From the UHGV virus genome UHGV-0317022: a stretch of DNA of 22,796 bases. One strand, given 5' to 3'. The DNA is from a virus. Below, piece after piece: positions 2,920 to 9,758 of this stretch. The translations under genes were made by a program, and so were the position numbers. Numbering within the stretch: position 1 is the first letter of the stretch; each line of letters begins with the position of its first letter. A model generated the notes under the pieces. That model saw nothing but the letters and a program-made list of their open reading frames with translations, ran no database searches and was not told the origin of the DNA.

Positions 2920-3789
<870 letters not shown>

Positions 3790-4321: not shown

Positions 4322-4681
4322 ATGTTAACGCCGTTTGGTAAGACAGTAAGAAAAATGCGCATAGACTTGGGGCTTACGCTTAAAAGCATGGCTGAGGCTA
4401 TGGGCATGACCTCGTCTTATCTTTCAGCGATCGAAACTGGTAAAAGGGCGGTCACTAAGCCCGTGCTTGATAGCATCATTAGCTATTTTAATGCGGATGA
4501 AAAACAAAAAGAAAAGCTTATCAGTGCAGCTCGTGACTCTCAGCAGTCAGTAGAGATCAGCTTGTCAGGTAAGAATGGCCACGCTCGTGAAGTCGCAATT
4601 GCGTTCGCTCGTAGTTTTGATGAGTTAAATGAAGAAGACTTCCGTAATTTACGACAGATTTTGAATCGAAAACAGCAGTAG
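4322..4681 (+). CDS. XRE-family helix-turn-helix transcriptional regulator
   Basis: 119 aa with the HTH signature LGLTLKSMAEAMGMTSSYLSAIETGKR. GGAGAAG lies upstream of the ATG, and the stop is 8 nt before the next gene. Confidence 0.8.
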   Translation: MLTPFGKTVRKMRIDLGLTLKSMAEAMGMTSSYLSAIETGKRAVTKPVLDSIISYFNADEKQKEKLISAARDSQQSVEISLSGKNGHAREVAIAFARSFDELNEEDFRNLRQILNRKQQ

Positions 4682-4689
4682 GAGGCGGC

Positions 4690-5211
4690 TTGAGCGGACA
4701 AGATTATCGTGTACCTCCGCAGAATCGTGAATCAATACGTTCTATCGTCAGATCTCTGCGGAGCGCATTTGGTATTACTGGGCTTAAATTCCCTGTAATG
4801 GAGGTAATTGAGTTCGCATTGCCTCAGTTGATCCCGGATTTTGAGTTCCACATTGGTGGTATGAAAGAAATGGGAGAGACGCATGGTCTTACATACCCAC
4901 AGGAACATTTATTGATTCTGCGCGAAGACATTTACGAAGGCGCTTTGAATGGGGTAGGGCGAGATAGGATGACTGCCGCGCATGAACTGGGTCATCTTCT
5001 TATGCACAGGAACATCGCATTTGCTCGTTCTGCCCCAGGGGTAAAAATCCGCCCTTTTGAGAGTAGTGAATGGCAAGCTAAATGTTTTAGTGGTGAGTTA
5101 TTAGTGCCAGCTATGCATGCCAGTATTTTAAAAGGTATGACGGCTGAGGATGTTGCTGAGGCATGCGGAGTTTCATTAGTGGCAGCGCGTTATCAGCTAG
5201 ACAAAATGTAA
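4690..5211 (+). CDS. ImmA/IrrE-family zinc metallopeptidase (HEXXH)
   Basis: 173 aa containing the AAHELGHLLMH (HExxH) motif. It is tightly coupled to the upstream HTH gene (AGGAGG, then a TTG start at 4690), the classic ImmR/ImmA-type pair. Confidence 0.8.
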   Translation: MSGQDYRVPPQNRESIRSIVRSLRSAFGITGLKFPVMEVIEFALPQLIPDFEFHIGGMKEMGETHGLTYPQEHLLILREDIYEGALNGVGRDRMTAAHELGHLLMHRNIAFARSAPGVKIRPFESSEWQAKCFSGELLVPAMHASILKGMTAEDVAEACGVSLVAARYQLDKM

Positions 5212-5364: not shown

Positions 5365-5469
5365 ATGAATGGGTTTGAAATCAATTGCTTCAAAAGCGGC
5401 GCCCAAAGGGTTCCGTTGGGTTTTCTGCCGTTACCGCAAGGTGCGTGGGAAATCAAAAAAAGTCCTTGA
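5365..5469 (+). CDS. Small ORF (34 aa) with a strong Shine-Dalgarno, function unknown
   Basis: AAGGAGG at 5352-5358, 6 nt before ATG 5365. Translation MNGFEINCFKSGAQRVPLGFLPLPQGAWEIKKSP; a strong terminator lies about 60 nt downstream. Too short to assign. Confidence 0.25.
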   Translation: MNGFEINCFKSGAQRVPLGFLPLPQGAWEIKKSP

Positions 5470-5530
5470 TGCTCATGATTACGGGTACGAGGCGTGGGCA
5501 TTTTTAGTGCGCTGCTAAGGGGTAGTATTT

Positions 5531-5556
5531 AAGGCACCTGCGGGTGCCTTTTTTGT
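5531..5556 (+). terminator. Rho-independent terminator
   Basis: AAGGCACC-tgcg-GGTGCCTT stem-loop immediately followed by TTTTTTG. Confidence 0.6.
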
Positions 5557-5760: not shown

Positions 5761-5905
5761 TATGAAAGGATTAGCGCCTCCTCCCACCGATCCTCCATGG
5801 CTTTACGCCAGTGTCTCTAGGACTGCTATGTGCCAATAGGAGACGCTAGTGACATTATGCTATGTTAACGTATTGCACTAATCCATATTTCGATGGTCAA
5901 GATAT

Positions 5906-6376
5906 ATGAAAGTCAGTCAACTCAAAATCATATCTCACAATGATATATTACCTGCTCTTTTAGGAAGAGTGTTCCATGTTACGCCTGAAAATAATATGTC
6001 TCTCATAAAACAGTCCGGCGCTTTGATCCCAAACTCGGAATTATTGCAGATGTCAAGATTTGGAAACTCATCAAATGGTTTTTTCAGACGGCGTAACTGT
6101 GTTTCCTTTTTTGACTACAGATGTTATGGGACTAAGCATTGGGAAGAACATGCCTATAAATGTTTTCCAACTCAGTTTATAAAACATGTGCCTAATGATA
6201 GAATTTCAATACTATTTCTTCATGAAAGCAAATTCGATAAATTGATCCCCTGGACTGCATGGAAAGCAGAAGAGGCATGGAGTGATAGGGTGGTCCCATA
6301 CGTTGAAACTGGATATAAAGGCATAGTCTCCTTAAGTGAGATTACTGAAGAGTTAATTGTTGGGTTTGACTGCTAG
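5906..6376 (+). CDS. Hypothetical protein (156 aa), AT-rich gene
   Basis: Uninterrupted ORF in a visibly AT-rich stretch. No family recognised with confidence; the N-terminal RVFHVTPENNMSLIKQSGAL is only faintly reminiscent of ART/DarT-like N-termini. Confidence 0.5.
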   Translation: MKVSQLKIISHNDILPALLGRVFHVTPENNMSLIKQSGALIPNSELLQMSRFGNSSNGFFRRRNCVSFFDYRCYGTKHWEEHAYKCFPTQFIKHVPNDRISILFLHESKFDKLIPWTAWKAEEAWSDRVVPYVETGYKGIVSLSEITEELIVGFDC

Positions 6377-6480
6377 CAAAGTCAAAAAATCGCTAACGAA
6401 TGCAGAAGGTACCTACTTATGGACCGGTCTTTTATGGTCTGCTTGCCGCTATCTTTAGGCTCATTAAGTGAGACTTTTCG

Positions 6481-7899
6481 ATGACTCCCATTCCGTCTTG
6501 TGTATTCGATGTATATGCCTTATCGCTTCCCCGAGGTCTGGGATTTGGGGATGATCCTCCAGTTAGCGCTTGGGGTAGTCATGATCATGTCACAGTCTGT
6601 GCACTGACACGTAATTGTCACAGCGGAAAGCATGGCATTCTTATAATGCGGCGTCGTGAGGACGATGTATGGGCAGTGCTACGCTGGGAGTCAGATTCAT
6701 ATAGTGAAGAAGAGGCTTTCACAATTATACGTGAGGCATGCGATGAATCTGCGAGTCGCGTCCCTTTGCCTCCGGGTACACGCAGGCGCGCACCGCTTTG
6801 GGATGTTGAAGGTAGACAACCAAGTAACATATTCAAACTACTTGGACATCCTTGTAGAGCACCTGGCGCATGGATGCTTAATCAATTGTATCTTGCAATG
6901 CCAAATCCGGATACTCACTGGGCAAGAGAGTGCCAGACTGATAACTTTCATACACGTATTTGGGAAGCCATGCTCCTGGCCAGTTTCCGTGAGCAGGGGT
7001 TGTTAGTCACTCAGGAGTACCCCTCTCCTGATTTTCACGTAATAAACAGGTCAGGTGGAGAAGCCTGGATTGAAGCTGTGACAGTTAATCCATCGGACCG
7101 TTACGACCATGCCAGGGCTGAACCTCTGACGTTTCCTTTAAACCGACAAGACAGGGTATCGGGAATTGCGGCTGAACGTTATGCGCGGACCCTAAGGAAT
7201 AAACTGCGCAAGAATTACACTAGTCTCACTCATGTCGAAGGAAAGCCGTTTGCCATTGCTATCGCGGACTTTCACGCTCCCGGTTCAATGATGTGGAGCC
7301 GTGAGGCTCTAATTACCTATCTCTATGGATTTTATGGAAGAGAAAAAGAAATAGATGGGAAGGTTGTGGCTGTAGCAGAAACTGTCGACTGCCTCAAAAG
7401 CGACCCCAAAATCCGTGCTGGTTTGTTTAATTCACACGATAACATTGCTCTCTCGGCGGTTATTTTTTCTAATTCTGCGACTTTATCCAAGCTGAGCAGA
7501 GTACCTGTTTCTTCCGGCGCCTTGATCAAAGGCTACCGGTACATAAGGATTGGTGAGTTCGCTAATGACTCGGCGGGAGCCTTACGTGGCATCCCCTTCA
7601 GTATGGATGTAGCCAGTGACCAATATCGTCGTCTTTGGGAACCCTATAGTTATGAGCCATGGACTTCAGAAATTGAAATTTTTCATAACCCAAACGCGGA
7701 AAACCCTATAAATTCTACGCTATTTCCAGAGGCCACGCATTGGCTTCCAGTTAACGGTGAGATAATTTGCAAACGCTTTTTCAAGCAAAGCATTTTAAAA
7801 AGCCAAACCATTATTCAACACGCAGATGATCCAGTTCCTAATGCAAATAGCCTCACGTTTCAGGAAACTTATGAGGCAGACGATAAATTATTTGACTGA
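6481..7899 (+). CDS. Hypothetical protein (472 aa), function unknown
   Basis: Long ORF with an ATG start, on the same strand as and downstream of the XRE/ImmA pair and the 156-aa ORF. No recognisable catalytic motif by eye. The start codon is uncertain (internal Met candidates exist). Confidence 0.6.
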   Translation: MTPIPSCVFDVYALSLPRGLGFGDDPPVSAWGSHDHVTVCALTRNCHSGKHGILIMRRREDDVWAVLRWESDSYSEEEAFTIIREACDESASRVPLPPGTRRRAPLWDVEGRQPSNIFKLLGHPCRAPGAWMLNQLYLAMPNPDTHWARECQTDNFHTRIWEAMLLASFREQGLLVTQEYPSPDFHVINRSGGEAWIEAVTVNPSDRYDHARAEPLTFPLNRQDRVSGIAAERYARTLRNKLRKNYTSLTHVEGKPFAIAIADFHAPGSMMWSREALITYLYGFYGREKEIDGKVVAVAETVDCLKSDPKIRAGLFNSHDNIALSAVIFSNSATLSKLSRVPVSSGALIKGYRYIRIGEFANDSAGALRGIPFSMDVASDQYRRLWEPYSYEPWTSEIEIFHNPNAENPINSTLFPEATHWLPVNGEIICKRFFKQSILKSQTIIQHADDPVPNANSLTFQETYEADDKLFD

Positions 7900-8203
7900 C
7901 CTGCTTGATTCGCACAGAACGCTGTTAGCAATGTCCGCTCCTCGCTCATAACAGACATTAACTACAGTTATGGTAGAAGGTATGCATGCTGGGTGGGGAA
8001 AGTATGAAGGAAAAGAAGACTGCTGCGCCGTTTGTCGTCACATTTATCTTCATTGGCTATGCAAGTCATAATACAAGGTGGGACAAAACTGAGACACATA
8101 AGGCCTCACAATGGCTTGCAAGGCTTTACATGTTTTGATGTGGTGGGACGTGTGAGCGCAGTGTTGATGGGGTAATACTTTGAATTAGAAGCGGATTCTT
8201 ATA

Positions 8204-8249
8204 ATTCGTAATGCGAAGGTCGTAGGTTCGACTCCTATTATCGGCACCA
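8204..8249 (+). other. Partial tRNA-Thr(CGU) 3' fragment (anticodon loop to CCA), att core of an integrative element; not a complete tRNA
   Basis: ATTCGTAATGCGAAGGTCGTAGGTTCGACTCCTATTATCGGCACCA matches the 3' 46 nt of E. coli thrW-type tRNA as I remember it. The upstream sequence cannot form the acceptor or anticodon 5' strands. Confidence 0.7.
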
Positions 8250-8415: not shown

Positions 8416-9630
8416 GTGAAACTCAATGCCCGTCAAATAGACACTGCCAAGCCAAAAGAGAAGGCTTACAAGCTGGCTGATGGTGGTGGTCTGTATCTCC
8501 TGGTAAAACCTAGTGGAGGAAAATACTGGCGCTTTAAATATCGTGTAGCTGGTAAAGAGAAGCTGTTAGCACTAGGTGTGTATCCTGAAGTTACCTTGGC
8601 TGATGCTCGTGCAAAACGTGAAGAAGCTAAAAGGGGTATCGCTGGGGGTATCGATCCGATGGAAGCGAAACGAGAGGAAAAGATTGCCCGGGAAACGCAG
8701 TTAAACAATACCTTCAAAGATATTGCCCTTGAGTGGCACAGCAGCAAATTAAAAAAATGGTCTGCTGGTTATGCTTCAGATATCCTCGAAGCCTTCAACA
8801 AAGATGTGTTCCCTTACATTGGCAAAAAACCAATCGCCGAAATCAAACCACTTGAACTTCTGAATGTGCTGCGACGCATCGAGGGGCGCGGTGCTACAGA
8901 AAAAGCCAAAAAAGTGAGGCAGCGGTGCGGGGAAGTTTTCCGCTATGCAATAGTCACTGGTCGCGCAGAGTATAACCCTGCCCCAGATCTTACTAGCGCG
9001 ATGCAAGGCCATGAATCTAATCATTATCCTTTCCTCACAGCCAAAGAATTGCCTGATTTTTTCAAGGCATTGTCCAGTTACTCAGGAAGTGCATTGGTTG
9101 TTATGGCGGCTCGTCTACTGATTATCACTGGTTTGCGAACTGGCGAACTGCGCGGTGCATTATGGGATGAAATCGATCTCAACAAGGCTATCTGGGAGAT
9201 ACCTGCTTCACGGATGAAAATGCGTCGCCCTCATGTGGTGCCTTTGTCTAAGCAGGCTCTTTCTCTTATTGGGCAGATTAAAGAATTAACTGGTAATTAT
9301 CCGCTTATGTTTCCCGGCCGTAATGATCCAAGGAAAACAATGAGCGAGGCTAGCATAAACCAAGTATTTAAACGCATCGGCTATAACGGAAAGGTTACTG
9401 GTCATGGATTCCGGCACACCATGAGCACGATTTTACATGAGCAGGGCTATAACACCGCGTGGATAGAAACGCAGCTTGCACACGTTGATAAGAACTCAAT
9501 TCGTGGCACGTACAATCATGCGCAATATCTGGACGGGCGGCGCGAGATGCTCCAGTGGTACGCCGACTATATGGATTCGCTCGAACATGGCGGTAACGTG
9601 GTGCATGGCAAGTTCGGAAAATGTGGATGA
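8416..9630 (+). CDS. int: P4-type tyrosine integrase
   Basis: 404 aa with the N-terminus MKLNARQIDTAKPKEKAYKLADGGGLYLLVKPSGGKYWRFKY typical of P4-family integrases. GTG start with GGAGG 9 nt upstream; sits immediately downstream of the tRNA-derived att core. Confidence 0.9.
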   Translation: MKLNARQIDTAKPKEKAYKLADGGGLYLLVKPSGGKYWRFKYRVAGKEKLLALGVYPEVTLADARAKREEAKRGIAGGIDPMEAKREEKIARETQLNNTFKDIALEWHSSKLKKWSAGYASDILEAFNKDVFPYIGKKPIAEIKPLELLNVLRRIEGRGATEKAKKVRQRCGEVFRYAIVTGRAEYNPAPDLTSAMQGHESNHYPFLTAKELPDFFKALSSYSGSALVVMAARLLIITGLRTGELRGALWDEIDLNKAIWEIPASRMKMRRPHVVPLSKQALSLIGQIKELTGNYPLMFPGRNDPRKTMSEASINQVFKRIGYNGKVTGHGFRHTMSTILHEQGYNTAWIETQLAHVDKNSIRGTYNHAQYLDGRREMLQWYADYMDSLEHGGNVVHGKFGKCG

Positions 9631-9758
9631 CTGGTTGCGTATACAGTAGTAGACTTTGAGCGACGAAAGAAAAGGCTGTGTCTAGGGTCGCTCCCGAAAA
9701 TCCGTACACCTCGACGGACTGGTACAGCCACTACAGTAGAGGACGCTGAGGTGTGCGT

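Follow-up and report, generated by a model that had tools for sequence, protein, structure and literature searches.

Introduction

PD-T7-1 and PD-T7-5 are single-gene anti-phage systems of Escherichia coli that were selected experimentally (Vassallo et al. 2022, PMC9519451), and both have been predicted to be PD-(D/E)xK or weakly RmuC-like nucleases (PMC10952713, PMC10270631). The validated PD-T7-1 of strain ECOR46 (RCQ85672.1, 450 amino acids) was cloned with just 45 bp of upstream DNA and protects alone (PMC9519451, Table S2), and the native PD-T7-1 of strain NILS69, expressed in K-12, protected against a Teseptimavirus (PMC12409345); single-gene protection against phage has been shown for these two homologs only. 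Among the ADP-ribosyltransferases (ARTs), base modification by DarT1 depends on an Asp/Arg pair (D54/R52; PMC11543638), and phages and plasmids carry the small ART AcrIF11 (PMC12421852). Here we examine two co-oriented genes in UHGV virus genome UHGV-0317022, of which a stretch of 22,796 nucleotides (one strand, hereafter the window) was analysed. The locus is probably a cargo cassette of two functionally independent genes, the larger encoding a PD-T7-1-family nuclease and the smaller a stand-alone ART-fold protein.

5825-7959, plus strand: mobile two-gene cassette of ~2.13 kb, with the same edges by blastn in several contexts
5906-6376, plus strand: small gene, 156 amino acids, ATG start
6377-6480, plus strand: intergenic spacer of 104 bp, with no predicted terminator between 6376 and 6481
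6481-7899, plus strand: large gene, 472 amino acids, ATG start

Two genuine genes of different composition

The original prediction had singled out two co-oriented open reading frames (ORFs) of 156 and 472 amino acids, the first of them AT-rich. Both are present at the coordinates it gave, and the difference in composition is borne out by guanine-plus-cytosine (GC) contents of 0.375-0.383 for the small gene and 0.44-0.50 for the large gene. Judged by their homologs, both ORFs are genuine conserved genes and not chance ORFs, because those homologs are numerous. A word-indexed search with the small protein recovered 38 homologous clusters at 90% clustering, down to 35% identity, and an exhaustive profile search recovered 667 representatives at 50% clustering (E up to 0.001). 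The large protein has >820 homologs, and its full-length relatives (465-480 amino acids, 96-100% coverage) are spread across many Proteobacteria. No paper was found in the literature that names the RefSeq accession of either gene or that describes the small-protein family.

The large gene belongs to a known nuclease family

By eye, neither protein had been matched to a known family, and both genes had been put forward as candidate novel accessory or defence genes. This stands for the small protein, which is uncharacterised and has a predicted ART fold, and does not stand for the large one. The PADLOC PD-T7-1 profile matches the 472-residue protein with E 2.8e-69 and 232 bits (residues 113-446 against profile positions 120-447 of 452), PADLOC PD-T7-5 also matches it (E 2.6e-35), and in PHROGs it matches phrog_8571 (E 1.3e-52); no match was obtained in Pfam or NCBIfam. 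On the strength of these profile matches the large gene is a member of the known PD-T7-1/PD-T7-5 anti-phage family, and hence is not novel. Because the PD-T7-1 match scores only 232 bits, the protein is assigned to a diverged PD-T7-1 clade in which the common nuclease core is combined with an N-terminal domain peculiar to the clade.

6481-6816, plus strand: N-terminal domain (residues 1-112), conserved in the clade and outside the PD-T7-1 profile match
6817-7818, plus strand: nuclease core (residues 113-446), the extent of the PD-T7-1 profile match, common to PD-T7-1 and PD-T7-5

The core carries a PD-(D/E)xK nuclease fold by fold match. Four of its residues, E162, D184 (in S-P-D-F), E198 (in I-E-A-V-T) and K241, are invariant across 36 large-protein sequences, and the fold match makes them candidate active-site residues. 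Residues 1-112 left positions 1-119 of the PD-T7-1 profile unmatched, a mismatch that recurs in a 38%-identical relative (L046), and the N-terminal part of the protein has invariant residues of its own (F9, A13, L14, L16, P17, G19, F22, R57 and R58). The protein therefore resembles PD-T7-1 in the profile match over the ~330-residue core, the PD-(D/E)xK fold, the prophage/defence-island site and the length (472 versus 450 amino acids). It differs in its N-terminal 112 residues, to which the profile does not extend, and in that its lineage has an upstream ART-fold gene, whereas the validated clone has no such gene. The core would most likely cut nucleic acid during infection, and the clade-specific N-terminal domain would presumably act as a sensor or regulator.

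The RefSeq/PGAP product WP_000934335.1 has 341 amino acids and starts at the Met encoded at 6874. Conservation indicates that this start is too late and drops 131 conserved N-terminal residues (6481-6873), and that the ATG at 6481 is the true start, since the first 131 residues hold many invariant positions and Proteobacteria homologs cover them.

The gene upstream of the 38%-identical relative (L046 3895-4947) matches PADLOC Aga_Nuclease (Argonaute-associated nuclease) with E 3e-59, which is a further case of defence-gene clustering around the large-protein family.

The small gene encodes a predicted ART-fold protein

The 156-residue protein has no match in Pfam, PADLOC, NCBIfam or PHROGs, and neither Pfam DarT (PF14487) nor PADLOC DarT matches it at E up to 1. 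No sequence-level link to solved structures (PDB sequences) was obtained with the family profiles A1, A2 and A3. An AlphaFold model built from the family alignment has a predicted local distance difference test (pLDDT) value of 92 and a predicted template-modelling score (pTM) of 0.88. In Foldseek the top ranks for this model were taken by DarT (prob 0.98) and CC0527 (prob 0.99), with E near 0.01 and a template-modelling (TM) score of ~0.45, and CC0527 (DUF952) and Tpt1 are among its best structural matches. The model thus points to an ART fold closest to DarT. With E near 0.01 and a TM score of only about this size, the modelled relationship to DarT and CC0527 is a remote one.

The family alignment comprises 72 diverse members at 26-77% identity and has exactly three invariant columns (72/72), namely His24, Asp70 and Glu134, which lie in the motifs G-[RK]-V-F-H-V-T, C-V-S-x-F-D-[YLF]-R and V-P-[YH]-V-E-x-G, respectively.

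5975-5977, plus strand: His24 codon (cat), in strand 22-27 of the model; candidate NAD-binding His of an H-Y-E type ART
6113-6115, plus strand: Asp70 codon, invariant (72/72), followed by the near-invariant Arg72 (64/72)
6305-6307, plus strand: Glu134 codon (gaa), at the start of strand 134-138; candidate catalytic Glu

The model puts His24 on the first of the core strands and Glu134 where the penultimate one begins; by strand order, and not by superposition, these would be the positions expected of ART motifs I and III. Candidates for the aromatic member of an H-Y-E triad are F69 (62/72), F60 (65/72) and Y71 (Y, L or F), none of which is invariant. Asp70 and Arg72 offer a suggestive parallel to the Asp/Arg pair of DarT1. 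As H24, D70 and E134 are the sole invariant residues, the pattern is that expected of an active enzyme. Two of the 72 family members match Pfam DarT below threshold (best E 0.034). Nearly all members are stand-alone proteins of 150-190 amino acids, and no fused Pfam domain was found in the longer ones.

These observations make the small protein a candidate stand-alone ART-fold protein, from an uncharacterised family and without an antitoxin. It is probably a minimal H-Y-E (DarT/Tpt1/DUF952-like) ART, which would most likely ADP-ribosylate its target using nicotinamide adenine dinucleotide (NAD+); nucleic acid would be a more probable target than protein. Acting alone, it would provide the mobile element with a superinfection-exclusion or defence function.

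The described ART systems differ from it in several ways. Unlike DarTG, small-gene loci have no adjacent DarG macro-domain or NADAR antitoxin. Unlike DarT, which has ~200-220 amino acids, the window protein has 156 and no Pfam DarT match, and the genetics of the small gene, given below, imply no toxicity. CC0527/DUF952 and Tpt1 (KptA) have no sequence-profile match to it, and the Arg-His-Arg-Arg tetrad of Tpt1 is not evident; these two families are housekeeping or of unknown role and are not mobile-element cargo, unlike the small gene.

Genomic contexts of the small-gene family

Neighbours of the small gene were tallied at a limited number of hand-picked loci. At diverged loci the direct neighbour may be Shedu SduA (PADLOC E 1.2e-42) or, in two Pseudoalteromonas species, Gabija GajA-GajB (E 1.7e-273); other direct neighbours are a MoxR ATPase, itself partnered by a VWA/metallopeptidase gene, and a DUF4062 protein. 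PDC-M23B, a HamB-like helicase in convergent orientation, also adjoins the small gene, and the defence candidate PDC-S31 adjoins it in Morganella (E 2.1e-97). The Salmonella context is a P4-like AlpA/primase element with a SLFN/Fic gene, and prophage regions (recognised by tail or terminase genes) hold the small gene in Citrobacter, in Thiodiazotropha and on a P2-like contig. Further contexts contain PIN toxin-antitoxin pairs, integrases, a primase-polymerase, a relaxase and a transposase. Housekeeping genes (GidA, PFK, DEAD helicase) account for a few of the neighbours.

The possibility that the small protein is unrelated to phage conflict was considered against these contexts. It could be a Tpt1/KptA-like RNA 2'-phosphotransferase, have a DUF952-like role or be inactive, and its defence neighbours would then merely reflect island variability. 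The presence of CC0527 (DUF952) and Tpt1 among the best structural matches, the housekeeping genes among the neighbours and the failure to see a partner hydrolase are consistent with such a role. The small gene is nevertheless found consistently in prophage, integrase, satellite or toxin-antitoxin contexts, several of its direct neighbours are PADLOC matches, and both its AT-richness and its rarity (10 of 5,426 E. coli genomes) fit horizontally moving cargo. We consider a role outside phage conflict improbable.

No macro, NADAR or ADP-ribosylhydrolase (ARH) domain was found near the small gene in ~20 distinct contexts, scanned or precomputed. The small protein has no counterpart in 50,697 sequenced phage genomes and almost none in 72,556 plasmids. 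The distribution is therefore that of chromosomal mobile-element or defence-island cargo, and not the typical pattern of phage-borne counter-defence. This bears on a further explanation, in which the small ART is a counter-defence enzyme that, like AcrIF11, ADP-ribosylates a host or rival immune protein. The likeness is that AcrIF11 is also a small, stand-alone ART carried on mobile elements without an antitoxin (PMC12421852), and both the occurrence of the small gene in mobile-element cargo and the lack of an antitoxin would be expected of an enzyme that is not toxic to its host. AcrIF11 is, however, not a structural top match, and differs in being borne by phages and plasmids, from which the window family is absent or essentially absent. 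A counter-defence enzyme of this kind is very improbable.

Relationship between the two genes

The edges of the cassette recur in blastn comparisons (5825/5829 to 7956-7970). One site is a Qin-like prophage slot flanked by a DUF977 gene and hokD (L002, L034), and another directly follows the tail-fibre assembly gene tfa (L036). Further copies lie on metagenome contigs (L051, L052) and in a chromosomal island of Pantoea allii (L130-L132; 92% nucleotide identity), where the two proteins have diverged to 87% (small) and 92.6% (large) amino-acid identity. The spacer of the Pantoea copy is near-identical in length, at 105 bp. Among 5,426 complete E. coli genomes, 10 carry the cassette. No convincing terminal repeats or att-like sites were found at its ends, and a promoter scan gave 7 sites against 8.5 expected, which is not above chance.

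The same two genes could therefore be read as a two-component system, in which the small ART either labels DNA or the nuclease itself or acts as the sensor of infection, with the nuclease as executor, or as a toxin-antitoxin-like pair. Identical edges in at least five contexts and in Pantoea, where both genes have diverged, indicate co-inheritance; both genes run in the same direction, and the 104 bp between them lack a terminator; and at diverged loci the gene that directly follows the small gene is often a nuclease-type effector (SduA, GajA, PD-T7-1-like). Beyond the cassette the association disappears. Relatives of the large protein were collected at 89 loci, of which the 74 with at least 800 bp of upstream sequence were counted as informative. 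The small gene is present at seven of these, all with large proteins of at least 92.6% identity, and is missing from the other 67, one of which encodes a relative at 83% identity. Conversely, no PD-T7-1 relative was found at ~35 diverged small-gene loci. An all-against-all BLAST of neighbours revealed no recurrent partner family for the small gene, and the large gene has no conserved partner beyond lineage-specific neighbours. Co-occurrence of homologs, which the original prediction had put forward as a check, thus holds within the E. coli/Pantoea cassette lineage and is lost outside it, and the pair does not qualify as a conserved two-gene system.

The small gene alone (window 5853-6381) is common to another E. 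coli lineage, in which a prophage integrase near icd immediately precedes it. This lone copy is adjoined by a convergent gene for a 1040-residue protein (L133 6898-10020, minus strand), another large cargo gene that lacks annotation, with no Pfam or PADLOC match.

Disruptions of the large gene also bear on the relationship. It is broken by IS3 near codon 24 in four genomes (L001 9820-10982) and by IS911 mid-gene in one (L140 5034-6202), and it is frameshifted in two Pantoea allii genomes (L130/L131 6577-7988); the small gene is intact wherever the large gene is disrupted. Since the small gene is kept where the large gene is lost, the large protein is excluded as an essential antitoxin. A type II toxin-antitoxin pair was rejected on this ground, together with the restriction of the pairing to one lineage and the mostly solitary occurrence of the large family. 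Recurrent inactivation of the nuclease gene hints at a fitness cost of carriage. For the two-component explanation as a whole, three independent losses of the nuclease gene with retention of the small gene, the single-gene function of PD-T7-1 and the difference in GC content (0.38 versus 0.48), which suggests separate origins, add to the evidence against it from co-occurrence. We regard it as unlikely.

Several points weigh against two independent modules, each with a role in phage conflict. The cassette keeps identical edges across several contexts in two genera, and its 104-bp spacer is free of terminators, which is compatible with co-operation. No publication on the mechanism of PD-T7-1 was found in the literature searched. 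The candidate equivalence of H24 and E134 to ART catalytic residues comes from strand order in the model and not from superposition. An antitoxin partner would be expected for a DarT-like toxin, yet a macro, NADAR or ARH gene occurs in no context examined. The tally of defence neighbours reflects the hand-picked loci and not a genome-wide enrichment. Each of the alternative explanations nonetheless fits the co-occurrence, distribution or context data less well than independent modules do. The best-supported explanation for these observations remains a shared cassette whose two genes would function independently.

The prophage end around the cassette

The accessory region had been described as a defence hotspot, and this is borne out by the genes upstream of the cassette, namely PD-T4-3 together with either an XRE/ImmA pair or a type II restriction-modification slot.

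2920-3744, minus strand: PD-T4-3 (GIY-YIG gene beside tfa; PADLOC E 8.7e-140, phrog_5356)
4322-5211: XRE (capH-like) and ImmA/M78 (capP-like) pair (PADLOC capH E 3.6e-10, capP E 6e-11)
5531-5550: predicted terminator, which ends the XRE/ImmA module

PD-T4-3 is a published single-gene defence, for which PGAP calls a 257-residue product from an internal start. A 49-residue basic ORF with a strong Shine-Dalgarno sequence (5369-5518, WP_023277296.1) follows the XRE/ImmA pair. Between PD-T4-3 and the cassette, several E. coli strains have in place of XRE/ImmA a type II restriction endonuclease together with a DNA cytosine methyltransferase (L141 1897-4573); with restriction-modification in this slot, the prophage end stacks three or four defence modules.

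The XRE/ImmA pair matches the CapH and CapP models moderately and, like CapH/CapP, precedes variable defence cargo in different strains. It differs from a CapH/CapP-regulated operon in that it has its own terminator and is not co-inherited with the cassette. It occurs without the cassette, accompanied by a 158-residue gene and AbiTii in strain EC09 and by IS1 in another strain, and the cassette also occurs without it. The 158-residue gene of EC09 was considered as a diverged homolog of the small gene and was rejected (hhalign probability 0.2%). A necessary regulatory role of XRE/ImmA for the two cassette genes was rejected as well, on account of the terminator at 5531-5550 and the independent assortment of the modules. 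The pair is a separate module that is not functionally tied to the two genes, and it may be a regulator of variable defence cargo.

Beyond the cassette, the sequence at ~8195-8245 resembles a tRNA gene's 3' half, with a T-arm (GGTTCGACTCC), an acceptor stem and CCA. It lies directly before a P4-type integrase gene (8416-9630), occurs in 5,017 of the 5,426 E. coli genomes and is probably an att repeat. Neither ARAGORN nor Rfam calls a tRNA at ~8195-8245; the fragment may derive from thrW (tRNA-Thr). Two RNA matches at gathering level were obtained elsewhere in the window with Rfam: IS009 RNA (225.7 bits) at 2609-2807 on the plus strand, inside the tail-fibre assembly gene, and int-alpA RNA (45.5 bits) at 9675-9742 on the plus strand, between the P4-type integrase gene and the next gene.

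Implications

The large gene adds little in itself, being one more PD-T7-1-family nuclease; the useful points are its different N-terminal domain and the error in the RefSeq start. The small-gene family is of wider reach, with ~670 clusters in many bacterial phyla, and lies outside the curated libraries (Pfam, NCBIfam, PADLOC and PHROGs). A bolder, and decidedly unlikely, proposal is that the small protein founds a class of antitoxin-less, DarT-like nucleic-acid ARTs. Such enzymes might confer single-gene immunity that tells phage from host nucleic acid, or might be portable add-ons to nuclease-type effectors (PD-T7-1-like, Shedu, Gabija, PDC-S31), for example by marking invading DNA or gating the nuclease. 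If the small protein is active, it would illustrate how an enzyme of the DarT type can be used safely when no hydrolase accompanies it. The repertoire of defence or counter-defence would then also gain a compact, NAD+-dependent effector.

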